A stretch of 6,398 bases of DNA from Candidatus Nanopusillus sp. Lineage in GTDB: Archaea > Nanobdellota > Nanobdellia > Nanobdellales > Nanobdellaceae. The notes beneath the pieces are model-generated. The model was given only the letters and a program-made list of their open reading frames with translations, was not told where the DNA came from and searched no databases. A program made the position numbers and the translations under genes. This document shows, one piece after another, positions 1 to 6,398 of this stretch. Location of the stretch: positions 1-6,398 of the forward strand of contig JAWDMD010000023.1 in NCBI GenBank assembly GCA_046536775.1. Direction: 5' to 3'. Positions within the stretch are counted from its first letter, which is position 1. Every line of letters begins with the position of its first letter.

Positions 1-416
1 CCGAGTATGAATATTACTATTAATGTAAAGATAATTATTGCAGATGTTAACAATATTATTCTTGCTCTATTACCAAGTTGTATTTCTCCACTCTTTTCTT
101 GTCTCTGTAAAAATGGAGAAATTGCCAAGATAAGGAAAAATACTGTTAATAAAAATAATACTATATATGGAATTAGTGTTCTTAATGATAATACAACATT
201 TGCAGATCCAACTATAAAAAACCCAGTAGCTGCAGATACAATTGATATTAAACTTCTTGTAACCTTTCCTTTATCCCCCTCGGCAAAAGGATCACCTAAA
301 ATTTTATAATTACTCAATATACCATACATTACAGCATAAACTAATAGGAATGGCAATATAACATTAAAGAATCCAAGGTTGTTCAATAATGTTATAAACG
401 TATCATAAAATGCCAT
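1..416 (-). CDS. Integral membrane protein, N-terminal 138 codons; the gene continues past the left edge of the window
   Basis: This ORF is absent from the supplied track because it has no stop codon inside the window. Hand translation of the reverse strand from ATG (complement of cat at 414-416) gives MAFYDTFITLLNNLGFFNVILPFLLVYAVMYGILSNYKILGDPFAEGDKGKVTRSLISIVSAATGFFIVGSANVVLSLRTLIPYIVLFLLTVFFLILAISPFLQRQEKSGEIQLGNRARIILLTSAIIIFTLIVIFIL... The frame stays open to position 1. It has four clean ~20-residue hydrophobic segments separated by charged loops. It lies 26 nt downstream of the second ferredoxin on the same strand. I recognise no family. Confidence 0.6.
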   Translation of the reverse strand, partial: MAFYDTFITLLNNLGFFNVILPFLLVYAVMYGILSNYKILGDPFAEGDKGKVTRSLISIVSAATGFFIVGSANVVLSLRTLIPYIVLFLLTVFFLILAISPFLQRQEKSGEIQLGNRARIILLTSAIIIFTLIVIFIL

Positions 417-442
417 ATTTAAAAATAATATTTCATAATTTA

Positions 443-655
443 TTAATCTTTATCTGATATTTCTTCGTAATATATAGCATTTGTAGGACATGCCTTTGCG
501 GCAATTTTTATATCTTCTATATCTTCTTCAGAAGAAATTGTATTATTTTTTATTACTATCCTATTATTTTCAATTGAAAAAATGTTTTTATTTATCAAAT
601 AGCATGCCAAACAATTTATACATTTACTATAATCAATATCTACTATATATTTCAT
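443..655 (-). CDS. Small monocluster [4Fe-4S]-type ferredoxin, the divergent second copy
   Basis: The 70-aa ORF carries CxxCxxC (CINCLAC) plus a distal CP (KACPTNAI), the four-ligand pattern of single-cluster ferredoxins. Its size and layout match the upstream paralog. Its start ATG (655-653) overlaps the upstream TAA (657-655) by 1 nt, read as TAATG on the minus strand. Confidence 0.8.
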   Translation of the reverse strand: MKYIVDIDYSKCINCLACYLINKNIFSIENNRIVIKNNTISSEEDIEDIKIAAKACPTNAIYYEEISDKD

Positions 656-864
656 TAATCATTTACATCTTCTATCTTAATTGAATGTGTTGGGCATGCA
701 ACTTCAGCATCTCTTGCTTTTTGTATTAAATTTGTATCTTCAATAACTTCAACTTTTGCTTTTGCTTTTCCATCAGAATCGAATTCATATATTTCTGGTG
801 CAATTGCAATACAGGTTCCGCAACCAATGCAAGTATCTTTATCAACCCATGTTTTTATTTTCAT
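655..864 (-). CDS. Monocluster [4Fe-4S] ferredoxin, Pyrococcus/Thermotoga type
   Basis: The 69-aa ORF contains DKDTCIGCGTC ... KVEVIED ... ACPTHSI. It closely resembles, from memory, the P. furiosus ferredoxin blocks DQDTCIGDAIC ... KVEVIED ... ACPVSAI. It has all four Cys ligands and lacks the extra disulfide cysteines of the Pyrococcus protein. Confidence 0.9.
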   Translation of the reverse strand: MKIKTWVDKDTCIGCGTCIAIAPEIYEFDSDGKAKAKVEVIEDTNLIQKARDAEVACPTHSIKIEDVND

Positions 865-887
865 ACAGAATATATCGATGTTATACC

Positions 888-896
888 TTATAAATA
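888..896. promoter_or_regulatory. TATA-like box (TTATAAATA) in the 51-nt divergent spacer, possibly shared by both flanking genes
   Basis: The element is centred about 25 nt upstream of the GTG at 916 on the + strand. It is about 27 nt upstream of the ATG at 864 on the - strand, where it reads TTTATAAG. This is the archaeal TATA-to-TSS spacing if both mRNAs are leaderless. The AT-rich background weakens specificity. Confidence 0.35.
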
Positions 897-915
897 TTAA
901 AAATATAAATAGAGC

Positions 916-1743
916 GTGGAATTAAATGATATTTTTGTTAGAGTAACAGATATAACAGATTATATTTTTTGTCCTAGAAAAGTTTATCTAAAAAGAGTTT
1001 TAAGATATTCGGAAGAAGATACTGAACAGAAAATATTTGGATCAATTGTTCATTCTTTATTTGATAAAATAAATGAAAAAGAGAAGGAAATAATATTTAA
1101 TATAAAAGAGTTTGTTGAATATGAAAAAATATTAAATTTATATAATCATTTTTTAATGGAATTACTGGAGGAATCTATAAAAGAATTTGAGGAACAAATA
1201 AAAAATTTAAGTTTAGATAAAAATGGTATAAAAATAAAGGCATATAGCTATGTAATAAAGGATATAGAAGATAGAGCAAAAAATGTATTTAATTTTATGA
1301 AAGATAAAGATGTATATGGAATAGAATTATGGGAATTCTTAGAACCAAAAATAAAGACAGAACTTGATGTTACATCTTTAAAATATAATATAGTTGGAAG
1401 GATTGATAGACTAGAAATATATAAAAAACAAATGATACCTTACGAAATAAAATCTGGATTTTTTAGAAGGGAACATATTACTCAATTATATTCATATTAT
1501 TTATTATTAAAAGACGAATTTCCAAATTATGATATAAAAAAAGGGATGTTATTATATGCAAAAGATAACCATAAAATAGAAATAGAGTTTAGAAATAATA
1601 GTGAAATAAATAAAATACTTGATATAAAAGATAAAATAATTAATATGGTAGACAAAAAAGAGGACCCTGGAAAAAAATTCTCTGAAAAATGCAAAAAATG
1701 TGCTTTTTATAATATTTGTTGGAAAAATGGAAATAAAAATTGA
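916..1743 (+). CDS. cas4: Cas4/DUF83-family PD-(D/E)xK nuclease with a four-cysteine Fe-S cluster signature; no CRISPR or other cas genes in the window
   Basis: Family motifs present: N-terminal DYIFCPRKVYL (the Cas4 CPRK cysteine), GSIVHSLF, GRIDRLE (motif II Asp), PYEIKSG (ExK), QLYSYYLLL (QxxxY), and C-terminal CKKCAFYNIC (Cx2Cx5C). The start is GTG at 916, the first start codon after the in-frame TAG at 910-912. A K/E-rich segment of about 90 aa (residues ~50-140) is inserted relative to typical ~200-aa Cas4 proteins. Confidence 0.85.
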   Translation: MELNDIFVRVTDITDYIFCPRKVYLKRVLRYSEEDTEQKIFGSIVHSLFDKINEKEKEIIFNIKEFVEYEKILNLYNHFLMELLEESIKEFEEQIKNLSLDKNGIKIKAYSYVIKDIEDRAKNVFNFMKDKDVYGIELWEFLEPKIKTELDVTSLKYNIVGRIDRLEIYKKQMIPYEIKSGFFRREHITQLYSYYLLLKDEFPNYDIKKGMLLYAKDNHKIEIEFRNNSEINKILDIKDKIINMVDKKEDPGKKFSEKCKKCAFYNICWKNGNKN

Positions 1744-2491
1744 TACTAGAAAAAGTATATATGAAAATATAAATGAGGTATATGAAAAGATAAAAGAATT
1801 AAAAAATAAAAGACAAAAAATAGAAAGTTTGATAAAAGAATTGGAAGAAAAATTAAATAATATTGAGGAAAAAATAATTATTGAAAAAAAGAAGGAAGAA
1901 ATTAAGAGAAATAAAAAATGGTATGAGAAATTTAGATGGATGTTTACAACAAATAACTTTCTATTAATCGCTGGAAAAGATTCTGTCACAAATGAAATTA
2001 TTATAAATAAATATTTAGAAAAAAATGATTTAGTATTTCATGCGGATATTGTTGGATCTCCTTTTGGTATATTAAAAAATGGAAGAGATGCAAGTGAAAT
2101 AGATATATATGAAGCTGCAAAATTCGTTGGATCATATTCTAGAGCATGGAAAGATAAATTATCATCTATAGATGTATATTATGTATATCCGGATCAGGTA
2201 TCAAAAAAAGCACCTTCTGGAATGTATTTAAAAAAAGGTTCTTTTATGATATATGGTGAAAAGAATTATATAAAAGTAAATTTAGAAATTGCATTGGCAT
2301 TTGAAGATTATAATATTATTTCGGGGGTACCTGAAAGTATAAAAGATAAATATAAAAATTATGTTATATTAGTTCCTGGAAATAAAAAACCAATTGATAT
2401 TGCAAAACAATTAGAAAATATTTTTAAAGTTGATTATAATATTATAGTAGGATATCTTCCTGGTGATAGTGATATACTATCTATCAAGTAA
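1727..2491 (+). CDS. NFACT-R (DUF814) domain protein: the C-terminal half of an NEMF/Rqc2/RqcH-type ribosome quality control factor, lacking the NFACT-N and HhH parts
   Basis: WYEKFRWMFTTNNFLLIAGKDSVTNEIIINKYL..DLVFHAD...AAKFVGSYSRAW...VSKKAPSGMYLKKGSFMIYGEKNY matches the conserved NFACT-R core. From memory, human NEMF reads [24 protein letters not shown]. It is preceded by IKIDTRKSIYENINEVYEKIKELK and a K/E coiled coil, as in the helical hairpin of full-length homologs. I prefer ATG 1727 (MEIKIDT, 17-nt overlap with cas4) over the track start at 1700 (44-nt overlap). Confidence 0.85.
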   Translation: MEIKIDTRKSIYENINEVYEKIKELKNKRQKIESLIKELEEKLNNIEEKIIIEKKKEEIKRNKKWYEKFRWMFTTNNFLLIAGKDSVTNEIIINKYLEKNDLVFHADIVGSPFGILKNGRDASEIDIYEAAKFVGSYSRAWKDKLSSIDVYYVYPDQVSKKAPSGMYLKKGSFMIYGEKNYIKVNLEIALAFEDYNIISGVPESIKDKYKNYVILVPGNKKPIDIAKQLENIFKVDYNIIVGYLPGDSDILSIK

Positions 2492-2496
2492 TAACT

Positions 2497-2504
2497 TTTA
2501 TAAA
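2497..2504 (+). promoter_or_regulatory. TATA box (TTTATAAA) for the surface-protein gene
   Basis: The box is centred about 26 nt upstream of ATG 2527, in the 35-nt spacer after the NFACT-R stop codon. The spacing fits a leaderless transcript. Confidence 0.4.
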
Positions 2505-2526
2505 TTTTTCCATCATAAATTAAATT

Positions 2527-4443
2527 ATGGATAACAGAGTAGTGGTAACAATAAGTAGATTATTTAGTTTTTTAATAGGGGTAGTATTATTAGCACTTGG
2601 TATACATTCACAAGAATTACTAATAGAACCACAAACACAAACATTATTAGCAAATGCAGCAAACAATTCAACATTTATAATAAAGTTATATGGAGTAAAT
2701 CAGATACCTGAGGAGGCATATATGTATTTTAATATATATGCACCAAATGGACAATTAATATATCAATATTATGAACCAATAACAGTATGTACAGGATTAA
2801 ATATATATCAAGTATCAGTAAATCCTTTAGAATTGGAGAATTTAGTACAACAGTATAATTATTCATGTACATATTATGGATGTTCAACACCGCAATATAC
2901 TTTTACAGTACAGGCAAATGTAACATTATTATATCCATCTGGTTTAGAAGATGTAACATCAAGTCAATCATATAATTTAGCATTTGTACCATATAATTTA
3001 ACATTATCATTAATACAATTACCAGAAGTAATTTCACAACAACAAGCACAACAATATGGAATAAATGTACAATCAGTAGTATATTTACAAAATGTTGAAA
3101 CAAACATACAATCCTCTACATTAACATTAACATTATACAATTCACAAGGAAATATTGTATATCAAACACAAGAAAATGTAAATTTGCAATCAGGAGAGAA
3201 TTTATTGACTATAAATATACCAAACTATTATTTAGAAAATGTACAAGGACAAATGTATGTATTAGAACAATTGAATGTTATATTATCTAATGGACAAGTA
3301 TTAACACAACAAGCAGAACAATCATTTTATATATCAAATAATCAAAATGGACAAAACATACAAGTAGTTTCAGTATCACCAAACTTCAATTCATTGAACA
3401 ATTTAGTAAATTCTGTATATAATGTAGAAGTATTAATGGAGAATTCAGGTTATCAGACAGTAAATGCAACAGTTCAAATGTTACTATATGATCAATATGG
3501 GGATTTAATATACAATCTACAAGGTTCACAAATAATATCTTCAGGTTCTCAAGGGGAAGTAACATTACCATTAAATACAATAGGATTACAGCCAGGATAT
3601 TATACAATAGTATTATATATATATCAAAATGGAGCAGAAATATATCAATATAATTATACAATAACAATAAATGAACAACAAATACAACCAGTAAATGTAT
3701 TAAGTGTATATGCAAATACATTTAATGTAAAACCAGGACAATTTATAGAATTATATGCAAATTTAGAATCTAACTTACCAATGAATATACAAGTACAACC
3801 AATAGTAGAATCACAACAATTAAATATATTCCAACAATTATCAACAGTAACATTATTACAAAATCAAGTAACACAATTGCCAATAGTAATATATATTCCA
3901 GAGAATTTAACAGCAGGATATTATCCAGTACAATTTGTATTTAATTATAATGGAATATCACAAACATATACATATAATCTATATGTAAATGGAACAAAAA
4001 TAATAACAAAACCAATAAGTGCATCTTTGGTTGGATATCTACCATTAAAATATGGAGAAAATTCAACAATATATCTAGTAATAAGTTCAAATACAACAGA
4101 AATATATAATTTATTAATACAGGCATATGCATCTGGAGGAGAAGTATATCCAGAACAACAAGAAGTACAGATAGGGGGTATGTATAATGAACAAATACCA
4201 TTAAATGTAACTGCAGAAAGTAATAATGTAACAATATATGTAAATGTAATAGATCAACAAACAGGACAAGTATTATATTCATTAAATGAAACATATTCTG
4301 TATCCCAAGGATCTTCAGTAGCATTACCATCATCAGAATTGATATTCTGGATATTAGTAGTATTAGCAATAATAATAATAGCTGCAGTATTAATGGAATC
4401 AAGAAGAGGTGGTAAAAAAGAAAAGGAAAAAGCTGAAGAATAG
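2527..4443 (+). CDS. Large surface-exposed glycoprotein (S-layer-like or adhesin-like): signal peptide, tandem beta-sandwich-like repeats, C-terminal TM anchor with a K/E tail
   Basis: The N-terminal hydrophobic segment is SRLFSFLIGVVLLALGIHS followed by QE. The C-terminal TM segment is LIFWILVVLAIIIIAAVLM, followed by ESRRGGKKEKEKAEE. Hand counts give 14 N-x-S/T sequons and about 68 Q plus 66 N in 638 aa. Residues 29-604 contain only 5 K and 0 R. A recurring module of about 100 aa carries ..Y..xG.(I/L)(I/V)YQ.. and ..(P/A)GYY.(I/V).(F/L).. motifs: NIYAPNGQLIYQ, LYNSQGNIVYQ, LYDQYGDLIYN, LQPGYYTIVLYIY, LTAGYYPVQFVFNY and DQQTGQVLYS. No specific family is recognised. Confidence 0.8.
   Translation: MDNRVVVTISRLFSFLIGVVLLALGIHSQELLIEPQTQTLLANAANNSTFIIKLYGVNQIPEEAYMYFNIYAPNGQLIYQYYEPITVCTGLNIYQVSVNPLELENLVQQYNYSCTYYGCSTPQYTFTVQANVTLLYPSGLEDVTSSQSYNLAFVPYNLTLSLIQLPEVISQQQAQQYGINVQSVVYLQNVETNIQSSTLTLTLYNSQGNIVYQTQENVNLQSGENLLTINIPNYYLENVQGQMYVLEQLNVILSNGQVLTQQAEQSFYISNNQNGQNIQVVSVSPNFNSLNNLVNSVYNVEVLMENSGYQTVNATVQMLLYDQYGDLIYNLQGSQIISSGSQGEVTLPLNTIGLQPGYYTIVLYIYQNGAEIYQYNYTITINEQQIQPVNVLSVYANTFNVKPGQFIELYANLESNLPMNIQVQPIVESQQLNIFQQLSTVTLLQNQVTQLPIVIYIPENLTAGYYPVQFVFNYNGISQTYTYNLYVNGTKIITKPISASLVGYLPLKYGENSTIYLVISSNTTEIYNLLIQAYASGGEVYPEQQEVQIGGMYNEQIPLNVTAESNNVTIYVNVIDQQTGQVLYSLNETYSVSQGSSVALPSSELIFWILVVLAIIIIAAVLMESRRGGKKEKEKAEE
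4414..4431 (-). terminator. T-rich tract on the minus strand (T5-CC-T4-C-T6), a candidate archaeal oligo-T terminator for the sRNA/operon transcript
   Basis: This is the complement of the purine-rich codons for the GGKKEKEK tail of the convergent surface-protein gene. It is the first T-rich run on the minus strand after the candidate D box (4451), 20-37 nt downstream of it. Confidence 0.3.
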
Positions 4444-4449
4444 TTTTTT
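4444..4449 (+). terminator. T6 run immediately after the TAG stop of the surface-protein gene (archaeal oligo-T terminator candidate)
   Basis: The sequence tagTTTTTTatctgtttgc lies directly after the stop codon. Further T5 runs occur at 4472-4476 and 4522-4526. Confidence 0.35.
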
Positions 4450-4450
4450 A

Positions 4451-4498
4451 TCTGTTTGCTTTAATTCATCATTTTTCAGCCTGGGACGGTTTCTTCAT
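4451..4498 (-). ncRNA. Candidate box C/D guide sRNA
   Basis: The minus strand reads AUGAAGA (C, 4498-4492), then the 12-nt spacer AACCGUCCCAGG, then CUGA (D', 4479-4476), then AAA, then AUGAUGA (C', 4472-4466), then the 11-nt spacer AUUAAAGCAAA, then CAGA (D, 4454-4451). The internal D'/C' pair is canonical and both spacings fit the archaeal layout. The terminal C and D boxes each deviate by one base. Confidence 0.45.
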
Positions 4499-4500
4499 TT

Positions 4501-4554
4501 TGTACCCCCACTAACTCAACCTTTTTCATCTATCTAAGGTTACCCTAGTAGGGG
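4501..4554 (-). ncRNA. Candidate single-hairpin H/ACA-like guide sRNA; the alternative is a long structured hairpin in the 3' UTR
   Basis: The minus strand reads CCCCUAC / UAGGGU / AACCUU / AGAUAGAUGAAA / AAGGUU / GAGUUA / GUGGGGG / U / ACA. The parts are a 7-bp lower stem, a 6+6 internal loop, a 6-bp upper stem, an apical loop with a GA...GA K-loop-like arrangement, and ACA at 4503-4501. The ACA lies 14 nt from the base of the upper stem. The G-U wobbles make the fold specific to the minus strand. The local region is about 47% G+C. Confidence 0.35.
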
Positions 4555-5082
4555 CTATATGTGTTCTAAAAAATTAATTATTATATCTTTATTTAAAACT
4601 TCTGGATGGAACAATGAAAAATATATATTTCTATATTTATACAATACTGGAATATTTTCTACCTTTCCAATTATATAGAATTTTTCATCAATCTTTGGAA
4701 TTTTTGTTATTAAAAAATATGCTTCAAAGTCTTTATCAACTATTTTATCTTTATTTATCATTTTTACATAATATTTTCCAATCAATTCTTTATCTTCAAA
4801 ATCGTAATTTAATAATCTTATTAATATTTGGCTTCCAGAACATATTGCAAGAGTTTTTATATTATTTTCAATTATAAATTCAAAATTTTTTATATAATTT
4901 AAATAATCAAAATCCATTATTGCAGTACCAGTTATTATTATTTTTTCAAAATATTTCTCTATTTTATCCTTATATGAGAAAACTTTATAATTAATGTTCA
5001 ATTCTTTTAAAATATTTATTATTGGATATAGAAATTCATATTTTGATAGTTCTTCTTTATTTGTATGAATTATTCCGATCAT
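4555..5082 (-). CDS. Class I glutamine amidotransferase, GMP synthase subunit A (GuaAA)-like
   Basis: The nucleophile elbow is LAICSGSQIL (canonical G-I-C-L-G-H-Q). The His-Glu of the triad sits in FSLFHPEV (canonical QFHPE). IIITGTA occupies the position of the ILSGGP motif. The C-terminal ...IYFSLFHPEVLNKDIIINFL resembles archaeal GuaAA. The start ATG overlaps the upstream TGA in ATGA (5082-5079). Confidence 0.8.
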   Translation of the reverse strand: MIGIIHTNKEELSKYEFLYPIINILKELNINYKVFSYKDKIEKYFEKIIITGTAIMDFDYLNYIKNFEFIIENNIKTLAICSGSQILIRLLNYDFEDKELIGKYYVKMINKDKIVDKDFEAYFLITKIPKIDEKFYIIGKVENIPVLYKYRNIYFSLFHPEVLNKDIIINFLEHI

Positions 5083-5744
5083 TCTAAATAAGCATTTTTT
5101 ATAATATATTCTGCATAATTTTTTTCTACCCTTATTTCATAATCTTTTATTATTATCCTTTTCTTAAATAATGGTTGATATAAAACAAATGTTTCATATT
5201 CCCCACCTTCTCCTGCAATATTTATTTTATATTTTTCTTTATATTCAATTAATTTTTTTATTATATTTTCCTCAATAACTTTTCCCAAAATATTTATATC
5301 TAAAGGATATGTATACCATCCAACAATTATAAACTGAAAATTATTTTTCAATAATTCATATAAATATTCTTTTTCGTCTTTTAACCATAATGGATTGAAA
5401 CACCATAGATTTAATCTCTTACATATTCTTTGAAATCTAGATCCCTGATATGTAGATCTAATTGCTCCAGTAACAATTCCATCAATATTATATTTTTCTT
5501 TTAAATATTTTAATGCTTCAAATAGTGTTTCTTCCTCATTATTATTTATATAAAATCTTTCTATAGGTATACCTAATGCTTTTGATTGTAGTTCAGTTAA
5601 ATTATTATTAATATAATGATATAAATAACTCTCATTATTTTTTGGGATTATATTTAATAATACAGATACTTCATGATATTTTGATGCAATATATAATGAA
5701 TAATTTGAATCTTTTCCTCCAGAATATAATACTGCAAGTTTCAT
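5079..5744 (-). CDS. dph6: PP-loop ATP pyrophosphatase of the MJ0570/DUF71/COG2102 family (diphthine-ammonia ligase, Dph6-like)
   Basis: The N-terminal PP-loop is LYSGGKDS. Family-specific blocks are GAIRSTYQGSRFQRICKRLNLWCFNPLW and AGEGGEYETFVLYQPLF. The 221-aa length is typical of the archaeal stand-alone enzyme. ATGA overlaps link it to both neighbours. Confidence 0.9.
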   Translation of the reverse strand: MKLAVLYSGGKDSNYSLYIASKYHEVSVLLNIIPKNNESYLYHYINNNLTELQSKALGIPIERFYINNNEEETLFEALKYLKEKYNIDGIVTGAIRSTYQGSRFQRICKRLNLWCFNPLWLKDEKEYLYELLKNNFQFIIVGWYTYPLDINILGKVIEENIIKKLIEYKEKYKINIAGEGGEYETFVLYQPLFKKRIIIKDYEIRVEKNYAEYIIKNAYLE

Positions 5745-6340
5745 ACCATATTTTTTGGTATAGAACTTATTAAATTATATATTAAGTTGTATAAATAATT
5801 TCCAGGTAATTTCTGATAAATTATATTACAATTTTCTGAATAACAAAAAACATTATTTTCATATAAAAATACATTGTCTTTAACAATTATTATTGGATAT
5901 GTCATATTTATATAATATGTTACATTAGAACAAGATGGAAATTCAATGCATCTTATCATTGGACATAATTCTCCAGGTTTGCATGTTATATTGCATGGAT
6001 TTACAATTGGTAAACATTCTTCAATTGTTATATTATAATAAATTGTTTGATTACAAAATATAAATGAAGTAGTATTAATATATTCTACCAATGGTATTAT
6101 ATAATTTATTCCAGGTCCATTATTTTTTATTATAAAATATCCGTCAGTAATATTATATAAATAACACCCATTTCCATATAGATTCAATAAATATAATGAT
6201 ATATTTTGATTATCAATTATAATATTTGTTTTTTCTAAAACATAGTTATTATTAAAGTTTACATTATTTAATAAAAATATAAAAAATAATACCAATATAG
6301 ATGTTATTCCTAGAATTATTGTATAAAAATAAGATCTCAT
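5741..6340 (-). CDS. Secreted or membrane-anchored cysteine-rich glycoprotein; hypothetical
   Basis: The N-terminal hydrophobic segment is YFYTIILGITSILVLFFIFLL. Hand counts of the 199-aa protein give 10 Cys (for example NPCNITCKPGELCPMIRCIEFPSC) and 8 N-x-S/T sequons. No family is recognised. The gene is the first of the minus-strand operon, and its stop overlaps the dph6-like start (ATGA at 5744-5741). Confidence 0.65.
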   Translation of the reverse strand: MRSYFYTIILGITSILVLFFIFLLNNVNFNNNYVLEKTNIIIDNQNISLYLLNLYGNGCYLYNITDGYFIIKNNGPGINYIIPLVEYINTTSFIFCNQTIYYNITIEECLPIVNPCNITCKPGELCPMIRCIEFPSCSNVTYYINMTYPIIIVKDNVFLYENNVFCYSENCNIIYQKLPGNYLYNLIYNLISSIPKNMV

Positions 6341-6360
6341 AATAAAATATTTTTAAGATT

Positions 6361-6370
6361 TTTTTAAAAG
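6361..6370 (-). promoter_or_regulatory. TATA-like box (CTTTTAAAAA on the minus strand) for the three-gene minus-strand operon
   Basis: The box is centred about 26 nt upstream of ATG 6340. The spacing matches the other operon starts in the window and suggests a leaderless mRNA. The AT-rich background limits confidence. Confidence 0.35.
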
Positions 6371-6398
6371 TTTTAATAATGGTAGAAATTGTAATAAA

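Follow-up and report, generated by a model that had tools for sequence, protein, structure and literature searches.

A conserved spacer of Candidatus Nanopusillus as a candidate gene for a tandem H/ACA and C/D guide RNA with predicted targets in helix 69 and the P-loop of 23S rRNA

Introduction

In Pyrococcus abyssi, the H/ACA guide RNA Pab21 forms the 5' end of a transcript that is annotated as the C/D RNA snoR9 (Toffano-Nioche et al., PMC4652768), and Northern blots detected forms both with and without the C/D motif in vivo (Muller et al., PMC2377435). Here, we describe a similar arrangement in a contig of Candidatus Nanopusillus sp. (GenBank assembly GCA_046536775.1, contig JAWDMD010000023.1, positions 1 to 6,398; this whole stretch of 6,398 nucleotides [nt] is referred to as the window). 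A spacer between two convergent genes is very probably, judging from sequence comparison, a minus-strand gene for a tandem H/ACA and C/D guide RNA, with a TATA-type promoter of its own and with helix 69 and the P-loop of 23S rRNA as targets. An initial annotation of the window had regarded this layout as one unknown in archaea, which was wrong in view of the two Pyrococcus reports (PMC4652768, PMC2377435). As the layout is already known in Pyrococcus, the module is a new example and not a new kind.

Like Pab21 (P. furiosus Pf1; Rfam family RF00065, snoR9), the module has a single-hairpin H/ACA guide with a kink-loop (K-loop) placed 5' of a C/D RNA. The Pyrococcus transcript is ∼127 nt, whereas the module is ∼105 nt; Pab21 belongs to the Thermococcales, in another phylum, and its target is pseudouridine 891 of 16S rRNA, whereas the target predicted here is helix 69 of 23S rRNA. 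The RF00065 covariance model gave no match with an E value of 10 or less, even in a search limited to 151 nt. The absence of a match and the different target indicated the same kind of arrangement rather than membership of the RF00065 family, and the module is probably an independent or long-diverged instance of it.

The C/D half has its closest described counterpart in sRNA4 of Nanoarchaeum equitans, which was represented by 8800 reads and has the D' guide GGCUGUCCCAGG, with GCUGGmGGCGGCA as the predicted 23S rRNA target (Randau 2012 supplement, PMC3491384). For the H/ACA half, uridines of helix 69 are established targets of archaeal H/ACA RNAs, namely, of motif 3 of P. abyssi Pab40 (PMC2377435) and of stem-loop 2 of Haloferax volcanii sR-h45 (PMC7075261).

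Results

A G+C-rich spacer with two modules on the minus strand

The spacer (4444 to 4554, 111 nt) lies between the TAG stop codon (4441 to 4443) of a plus-strand open reading frame (ORF) for a surface protein of 638 amino acids and the stop codon (4555 to 4557; cta, which is TAG on the minus strand) of a convergent minus-strand ORF of 175 amino acids with a weak match to GATase class I. The G+C content of the spacer was 0.378, compared to 0.234 for the whole window. It ranked first among 111-nt stretches, and the 25 stretches with an equal or higher G+C content all overlapped it (25/25). The initial annotation had described the spacer as the only markedly enriched stretch; the enrichment was borne out by the ranking, but "only" was an overstatement, as 187 to 297 (0.369) and 741 to 851 (0.36) came next. 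The first of these stretches lies within an ORF (7 to 309) without a Pfam match and the second within a ferredoxin ORF, and there was no Rfam match at threshold in either.

Read on the minus strand, the 5' half of the module is GCCCCUACU-AGGGU-AACCUU-AGAUAGAUGAAA-AAGGUU-GAGUU-AGUGGGGGU-ACA-AA, and the 3' half is AUGAAGA-AACCGUCCCAGG-CUGA-AAA-AUGAUGA-AUUAAAGCAAA-CAGA-UAAAAAA. The span of 4555 to 4451 consists of an ACA-tailed K-loop hairpin followed, after 2 nt of linker, by a C/D-box RNA (Table 1). Re-reading of the sequence reproduced all of the stop, spacer, and box coordinates of the initial annotation, including those of the ACA (4503 to 4501), the AA (4500 to 4499), and the C-box-like AUGAAGA (4498 to 4492) on the minus strand, as well as those of a T6 run (4573 to 4568), the string ATATAATAA (4585 to 4577), and the T-runs at 4431 to 4414. 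Its proposal that both modules are guide RNA candidates of the minus strand was likewise supported. The GATase coding region and the RNA gene share a single base, with the lower stem of the hairpin starting at the G of the GATase stop codon.

Conservation of the module among relatives

Related loci were retrieved through the protein encoded by the neighboring dph6 gene. Twelve loci with 73 to 97% protein identity were obtained from Candidatus Nanobsidianus stetteri, Nanopusillus acidilobi, several Nanopusillus metagenome-assembled genomes (MAGs), Nanoarchaeota archaeon YN1 (L006), Nanobdella aerobiophila (L009), and two Nanopusillaceae MAGs; L008 is a Nanopusillaceae MAG, and L011 is KM08. Together with the window, these loci gave an alignment of 13 sequences. 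Nanopusillus and Nanobsidianus were the closest named relatives of the window. Three public contigs encode the GATase protein, and one of them, L014 (a GenBank assembly), shows 100% identity to the window in the region; L013, from a metagenome, is 99.5% identical to the window.

The module was found downstream of dph6 and on the same strand in 12/12 related loci. Comparison of the spacer across relatives, which the initial annotation had suggested, revealed that every box was conserved in these loci and that compensatory changes had occurred. One explanation for such a pattern is that the boxes are chance motifs in a spacer conserved merely by its position between two conserved genes; ACA, CUGA, and UGAUGA-like boxes are frequent in AT-rich sequence. 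The spacer, however, was more conserved than the adjoining coding ends, contained compensatory pairs and exact spacing, and had guides corresponding to those of N. equitans sRNA4. Chance is already contradicted by these comparative data and is scarcely credible as an explanation. On this comparative evidence, the spacer is predicted to hold a gene for a small RNA that has been conserved within a family of tiny parasitic archaea. No description of the RNA was found in the literature on Nanopusillus small RNA or pseudouridine.

A candidate H/ACA hairpin

The 58-nt hairpin had a predicted folding energy of −23.4 kcal/mol (z = −4.25), and none of 200 shuffled sequences was equally stable. Across the 13 sequences, 99% of the cells in the 9-bp (base pair) lower stem and the 6-bp upper stem were paired, and 4 of the 15 pairs were changed on both sides. 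The observed values for pairing and covariation were reached by 0/500 shuffles, and registers slid along the alignment were only 35 to 58% paired. Three pairs of the lower stem had changed on both sides (A-U to G-C, C-G to U-A, and U-A to C-G), and the pocket-closing pair varied among relatives as A-U, G-U, or U-A. The same helices were recovered by RNAalifold. While the stems and the inner loop varied, the 10 nucleotides of the pocket, the ACA, and the apical GA...GA were unchanging. G-U pairs appeared only in the minus-strand reading. A plus-strand reading was rejected, as the boxes are readable on the minus strand only and 15 G-U cells become A-C mismatches. In L004 and L005, an extra U in the 5' strand of the upper stem (ACCUUU) pairs with an A that is added at the 3' side of the K-loop, giving a stem of 7 bp.

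Archaeal H/ACA RNAs have lower stems of 7 to 9 bp, an ACA located 14 to 16 nt from the pocket-closing pair, 8 to 11 layers between the closing pair and the second G-A pair, and a 3' pocket strand of 5 to 6 nt (PMC4652768). All of these ranges include the values for the present hairpin, which has a lower stem of 9 bp, an ACA at 14 nt, 9 to 10 layers, and a 3' pocket strand of 5 nt. The upper stem, for which at least 5 bp was taken as the criterion, has 6 bp. The hairpin is a candidate H/ACA-type pseudouridine guide.

Predicted pairing of the pocket with helix 69

The target predicted from the pocket is AACUC-UN-ACCCU. A haloarchaeal 23S rRNA gene present in a plasmid record (L016) had its best site in helix 69 (AACUA-UG-ACCCU), where 9 of 10 positions matched. 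The assumption that A1916 is universal in helix 69 was rejected; it had led to a 9/10 match with a mismatch beside the target in the haloarchaeal sequence. A metagenome scan for the perfect-match version, GTAACTCTGACCCTNNTAAGGTAGC, yielded at least 120 archaeal 23S contigs (L018 to L137), from which it follows that C is common at the A1916-equivalent position in archaea. The helix 69 loop of these contigs, AACUCUGA, with C at the position of Escherichia coli A1916, was found in many environments, and A is present in the haloarchaeal example.

Very AT-rich flanks were present in four of the metagenome contigs. One of these, L044, came from the same metagenome sample as L013, has flanks of ∼20 to 25% G+C, and carries archaeal genes for the large-subunit rRNA (LSU; full, 1415 to 4350) and the small-subunit rRNA (10290 to 11783). 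Its 16S rRNA starts with TTCCCGTTGATCCTGCG, one mismatch from what we take to be the sequence of a nanoarchaeal primer. The 23S and 16S rRNA genes of L044 are on opposite strands and are separated by ∼6 kb of DNA with ∼20 to 25% G+C; they are unlinked.

The pocket matched helix 69 of L044 at 10/10 positions (UAACUC-UG-ACCCU, LSU position 1987). Helix 69 was the only site with a score of ≥8.5 in the 16S and 23S rRNAs of L044, and a perfect match occurred in 0/1000 shuffles. The target U aligned to E. coli U1917. The labels U1917 and G2251 rest on a uniform offset of +6, as the E. coli copy that was aligned is 6 nt shorter than the reference, the numbering of which is here assumed. We predict from the sequence match that the pocket targets the U1917-equivalent of helix 69 in 23S rRNA. 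If so, AACUCUGACCCU would be expected in helix 69 of the 23S rRNAs of N. acidilobi (CP010514), YN1 (AP031373), and Nanobdella (AP019769).

The module resembles sR-h45 stem-loop 2 and Pab40 motif 3 in being directed at universally modified uridines of helix 69 (PMC7075261, PMC2377435). In sR-h45 stem-loop 2, UNUN is left unpaired and two pseudouridines are formed (PMC7075261), whereas pairing of the module's pocket extends through the first U and what stays unpaired is a typical UN, such that only the U1917-equivalent is a predicted target. Neither the sR-h45 nor the Pab40 guide is, moreover, connected to a C/D RNA; both belong to H/ACA RNAs with several hairpins. In N. equitans, a separate double hairpin of 159 nt is the one H/ACA RNA that has been reported (PMC3491384). 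Kinship with this RNA was considered and dropped, as comparison of its pockets with helix 69 by eye gave no convincing register.

The C/D module and its predicted pairing with the P-loop

The boxes and guides of the C/D module have a spacing of 7-12-4-3-7-11-4. The C' and D' boxes are exact consensus sequences and invariant, and the sub-threshold Rfam matches at 4449 to 4505 were mostly to archaeal C/D families, aligned end to end. Within the D' guide, GUCCCAG was invariant in 13/13 sequences, and the core had a 2-nt insertion in Nanobdella L009 (CCAUGUCCCAG). The D' guide formed nine contiguous pairs with the P-loop of L044, CUGGGGCGG, of which the second G, the equivalent of E. coli G2251, is the nucleotide designated by the fifth-nucleotide rule. 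The G2251-equivalent is thus the methylation site predicted for the D' guide. Nine base pairs to rRNA or tRNA was the minimum complementarity applied as a criterion for C/D guides. The 14-nt D' spacer of L009, UGCCAUGUCCCAGU, still pairs with the P-loop over 9 nt, two G-U pairs included; it also matches another site in the haloarchaeal 23S rRNA of L016 (GCUGGGACAUGGU).

The D' guide shares GUCCCAGG with that of N. equitans sRNA4 and has the same predicted P-loop G, and L044 23S rRNA contains a 12-mer identical to the predicted sRNA4 target. On this basis, the C/D half of the module appears to be orthologous to sRNA4. Further support for the orthology comes from the D guides of YN1 and KM08, which match the 23S region of the target predicted for the sRNA4 D guide as well. 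There are also differences: no hairpin with an ACA tail is seen in the 40 nt recorded upstream of sRNA4 (PMC3491384), and the module has off-consensus C/D boxes and, in the lineage of the window, a decayed D guide.

The D guides of YN1 and KM08 were read from 5125 to 5395 of L006 and from 5125 to 5395 of L011. With L044 23S rRNA positions 2560 to 2572, the KM08 guide (CGGAGAGACGACU) formed 11 contiguous Watson-Crick pairs (equaled in 2/500 shuffles) and the YN1 guide (CAGAGAGACGAU) formed 9 such pairs (14/500 shuffles). Both pair with UGUCGUCUCUCCC, near the peptidyl-transferase center, in a region that aligns to E. coli 2502 to 2517. The D guide in the lineage of the window is AU-rich. The D guide appears to be intact in the relatives and decayed in the Nanopusillus/Nanobsidianus lineage, where only the D' half would remain functional; one half of a C/D guide would then be decaying beside an invariant other half.

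A further difference between these lineages was observed in the terminal boxes. The C box of the window agrees with the consensus at 6 of 7 positions and the D box at 3 of 4, whereas L006 and L011 carry AUGAGGA and CUGA. Position 5 of the C box and position 2 of the D box are A with A in the window and G with U in L006 and L011. The two deviations change together because, to judge from the geometry of the kink-turn (K-turn), these positions face each other, and the joint change was probably a single evolutionary event. The terminal stem of the C/D module is limited to one possible A-U pair, which is not conserved.

Proposed mode of action and evidence for and against a guide function

From these data, we infer transcription of the RNA, its ends, the binding of proteins, and the modifications. 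Transcription of the minus-strand guide RNA gene would be driven by a TATA-type promoter of its own, located within the final part of the GATase gene. The 5' module would act as a single-hairpin archaeal H/ACA RNA, with L7Ae on the K-loop and Cbf5 on the lower stem and ACA; pairing of the pocket with helix 69 (AACUC-UG-ACCCU) would lead to conversion of the U1917-equivalent to pseudouridine. The 3' module, located 2 nt farther on, would act as a C/D RNA whose D' guide pairs with the P-loop, where fibrillarin would 2'-O-methylate the G2251-equivalent.

Several observations weigh against this model. Both terminal boxes of the C/D module in the window are off consensus (AUGAAGA and CAGA), and Rfam C/D families scored below their cutoffs (snoPyro_CD, 17.2 bits with a cutoff of 45; sR9, 16.7 bits with a cutoff of 36), although these misses say little because the models are guide specific. 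The match between the D' guide and the P-loop was not significant on its own, with ∼20% of shuffles equaling it, and the D guide of the window showed no run of more than 7 pairs with the L044 rRNAs and no rRNA target. The contig used for these comparisons, L044, is probably nanoarchaeal (Nanopusillaceae), a placement made from its sample, base composition, and 16S 5' end and not by assembly. For the hairpin, the free-RNA fold partly closes the pocket through invariant A-U, G-U, and U-G pairs, which are inaccessible to a covariation test; the pocket is minimal (5 + 5 nt); and searches of the whole window and of the 151-nt stretch with Rfam gave no match to an H/ACA family, with nothing reaching threshold.

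The closure of most of the pocket in the free RNA, its minimum size, and the lack of an H/ACA family match are also the features expected if the hairpin were not a pseudouridylation guide but a K-loop element that binds L7Ae and stabilizes the 5' end of a genuine C/D RNA, or a 3' structure of the mRNA. Such a role is opposed by the 10 pocket nucleotides, which remain invariant while the flanking stems vary with compensation, by an invariant ACA at 14 nt, and by the perfect and unique match to helix 69 in the canonical UN register, which was found in 0/1000 shuffles. We consider a nonguide hairpin very improbable.

Candidate promoter and proposed transcription

The longest invariant block upstream of the module was the 14-nt sequence AAGTTTTAAATAAA, which lies wholly inside the last ∼15 codons of the GATase gene. 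Promoters of N. equitans have a TTTAAA box A located 26 nt before the start (PMC3491384). This spacing would place the start of the RNA at a purine near 4567 to 4566, ∼11 nt before the hairpin. The invariance of AAGTTTTAAATAAA suggests that it serves as a dedicated promoter of the module. The initial annotation had pointed instead to ATATAATAA as an internal promoter, but this string varies among relatives and the invariant block is the better candidate. A scan for bacterial-type promoters and terminators detected nothing relevant near the module. Transcription would terminate at the T-runs downstream of the D box and would be followed by 3' trimming back to this box.

Alternatively, the module may have no promoter of its own, and the RNAs would be cut from the 3' UTR (3' untranslated region) of the dph6-GATase operon mRNA and stabilized by binding of L7Ae and Cbf5, a route similar to one raised in the initial annotation. 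The hairpin begins at the last base of the GATase stop codon, cotranscription of archaeal C/D RNAs with protein genes is documented (PMC6009581), and TATA-like strings are plentiful in AT-rich DNA. This explanation is weakened by L008 (3986 to 6840), which lacks the GATase gene; there, the box and the module are retained in an intergenic gap of 182 nt between dph6 and the convergent surface protein gene. The 14-nt TATA-type box is, furthermore, invariant, lies at a suitable distance, and matches box A of N. equitans. Processing from a 3' UTR as the only source of the RNAs is unlikely, although the two routes are not mutually exclusive and some read-through from the operon may occur.

A composite RNA or two RNAs

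With the dedicated gene as the preferred interpretation, the module may give rise to one composite mature RNA, to two separate ones, or, as Pab21 does, to both. A bolder suggestion is that the ∼105-nt RNA persists as a single bifunctional particle in which an H/ACA ribonucleoprotein (RNP) and a C/D RNP are joined by the 2- to 3-nt linker and dock on helix 69 and the P-loop, which are ∼320 nt apart. We put this forward tentatively, as possible rather than probable. Simultaneous occupancy by both protein sets is uncertain because a linker of 2 to 3 nt sets the ACA directly against the K-turn of the C/D RNA. If a composite is formed, it would couple pseudouridylation, methylation, and perhaps folding of the catalytic core of the ribosome, and it would be a prokaryotic counterpart of the composite small Cajal body-specific RNAs (scaRNAs) of eukaryotes, kept by selection in a minimal genome. 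The module resembles scaRNAs such as U85 in having H/ACA and C/D domains on one RNA. U85 has its H/ACA domain, which comprises two hairpins together with an H box and an ACA box, inserted within the C/D domain, and its target is an snRNA in Cajal bodies; in the module, the H/ACA and C/D parts are in tandem, and a stable composite is only putative.

The module is a second archaeal case, far removed in phylogeny from the first, of an H/ACA guide fused head to tail to a C/D guide. That the tight linker is conserved throughout a family of symbionts with reduced genomes speaks for selection of the linkage and against an accident. The testable predictions made here concern rRNA modifications of universal importance at two places, helix 69 and the P-loop, in organisms with cultivable cocultures (N. 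acidilobi and Nanobdella). The locus is also a small natural system in which the existence of composite guide RNPs beyond eukaryotes could be addressed.

Features of the module and neighboring genes

Table 1. Positions of the candidate elements of the guide RNA gene in the window, in order of the minus-strand reading
Feature	Position	Strand	Remarks
Candidate archaeal promoter AAGTTTTAAATAAA; TATA/box A TTTAAATA at 4597-4590	4588-4601	minus	Invariant, 13/13
Lower stem, 5' strand GCCCCUACU	4547-4555	minus	Nine pairs with 4504-4512
Pocket, 5' strand AGGGU	4542-4546	minus	Invariant in 13 sequences; complement of ACCCU just 3' of the target UG in L044 helix 69
Upper stem, 5' strand AACCUU	4536-4541	minus	Six pairs with 4518-4523
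K-loop A-GA-UAGAU-GA-AA, candidate L7Ae site	4524-4535	minus	N-GA-(5-6 nt)-GA-A(A) kept in 13/13; inner loop varies
Upper stem, 3' strand AAGGUU	4518-4523	minus	Pairs with 4536-4541
Pocket, 3' strand GAGUU	4513-4517	minus	Invariant; complement of the helix 69 AACUC immediately 5' of the target U
Lower stem, 3' strand AGUGGGGGU	4504-4512	minus	Pairs with 4547-4555
ACA box	4501-4503	minus	Invariant; 14 nt 3' of the pocket-closing pair
Linker	4499-4500	minus	2 nt (AA or UA) in 12 sequences; 3 nt (AUC) in L008
C box variant AUGAAGA (consensus RUGAUGA)	4492-4498	minus	Position 5 covaries with D-box position 2
D' guide AACCGUCCCAGG, 12 nt	4480-4491	minus	Core CCGUCCCAG identical in 12/13 sequences
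D' box CUGA	4476-4479	minus	Invariant
C' box AUGAUGA	4466-4472	minus	Invariant; 3 nt past D'
D guide AUUAAAGCAAA, 11 nt	4455-4465	minus	Looks degenerate in the lineage of the window
D box variant CAGA (consensus CUGA)	4451-4454	minus	CAGA in Nanopusillus, L008, and L009; CUGA in L006 and L011
T5, T4, and T6 runs, candidate termination site	4414-4431	minus	20-37 nt past the D box; antisense to the convergent gene at its 3' end

A scan of the window for tRNA and tmRNA genes found none. Elsewhere in the window, an ORF for a Cas4/Csa1-like PD-(D/E)XK nuclease (916 to 1743) overlaps one for an NFACT-R RNA-binding domain (1700 to 2491), and two tandem ORFs for single-cluster ferredoxins (443 to 655 and 655 to 864) are located on the minus strand.

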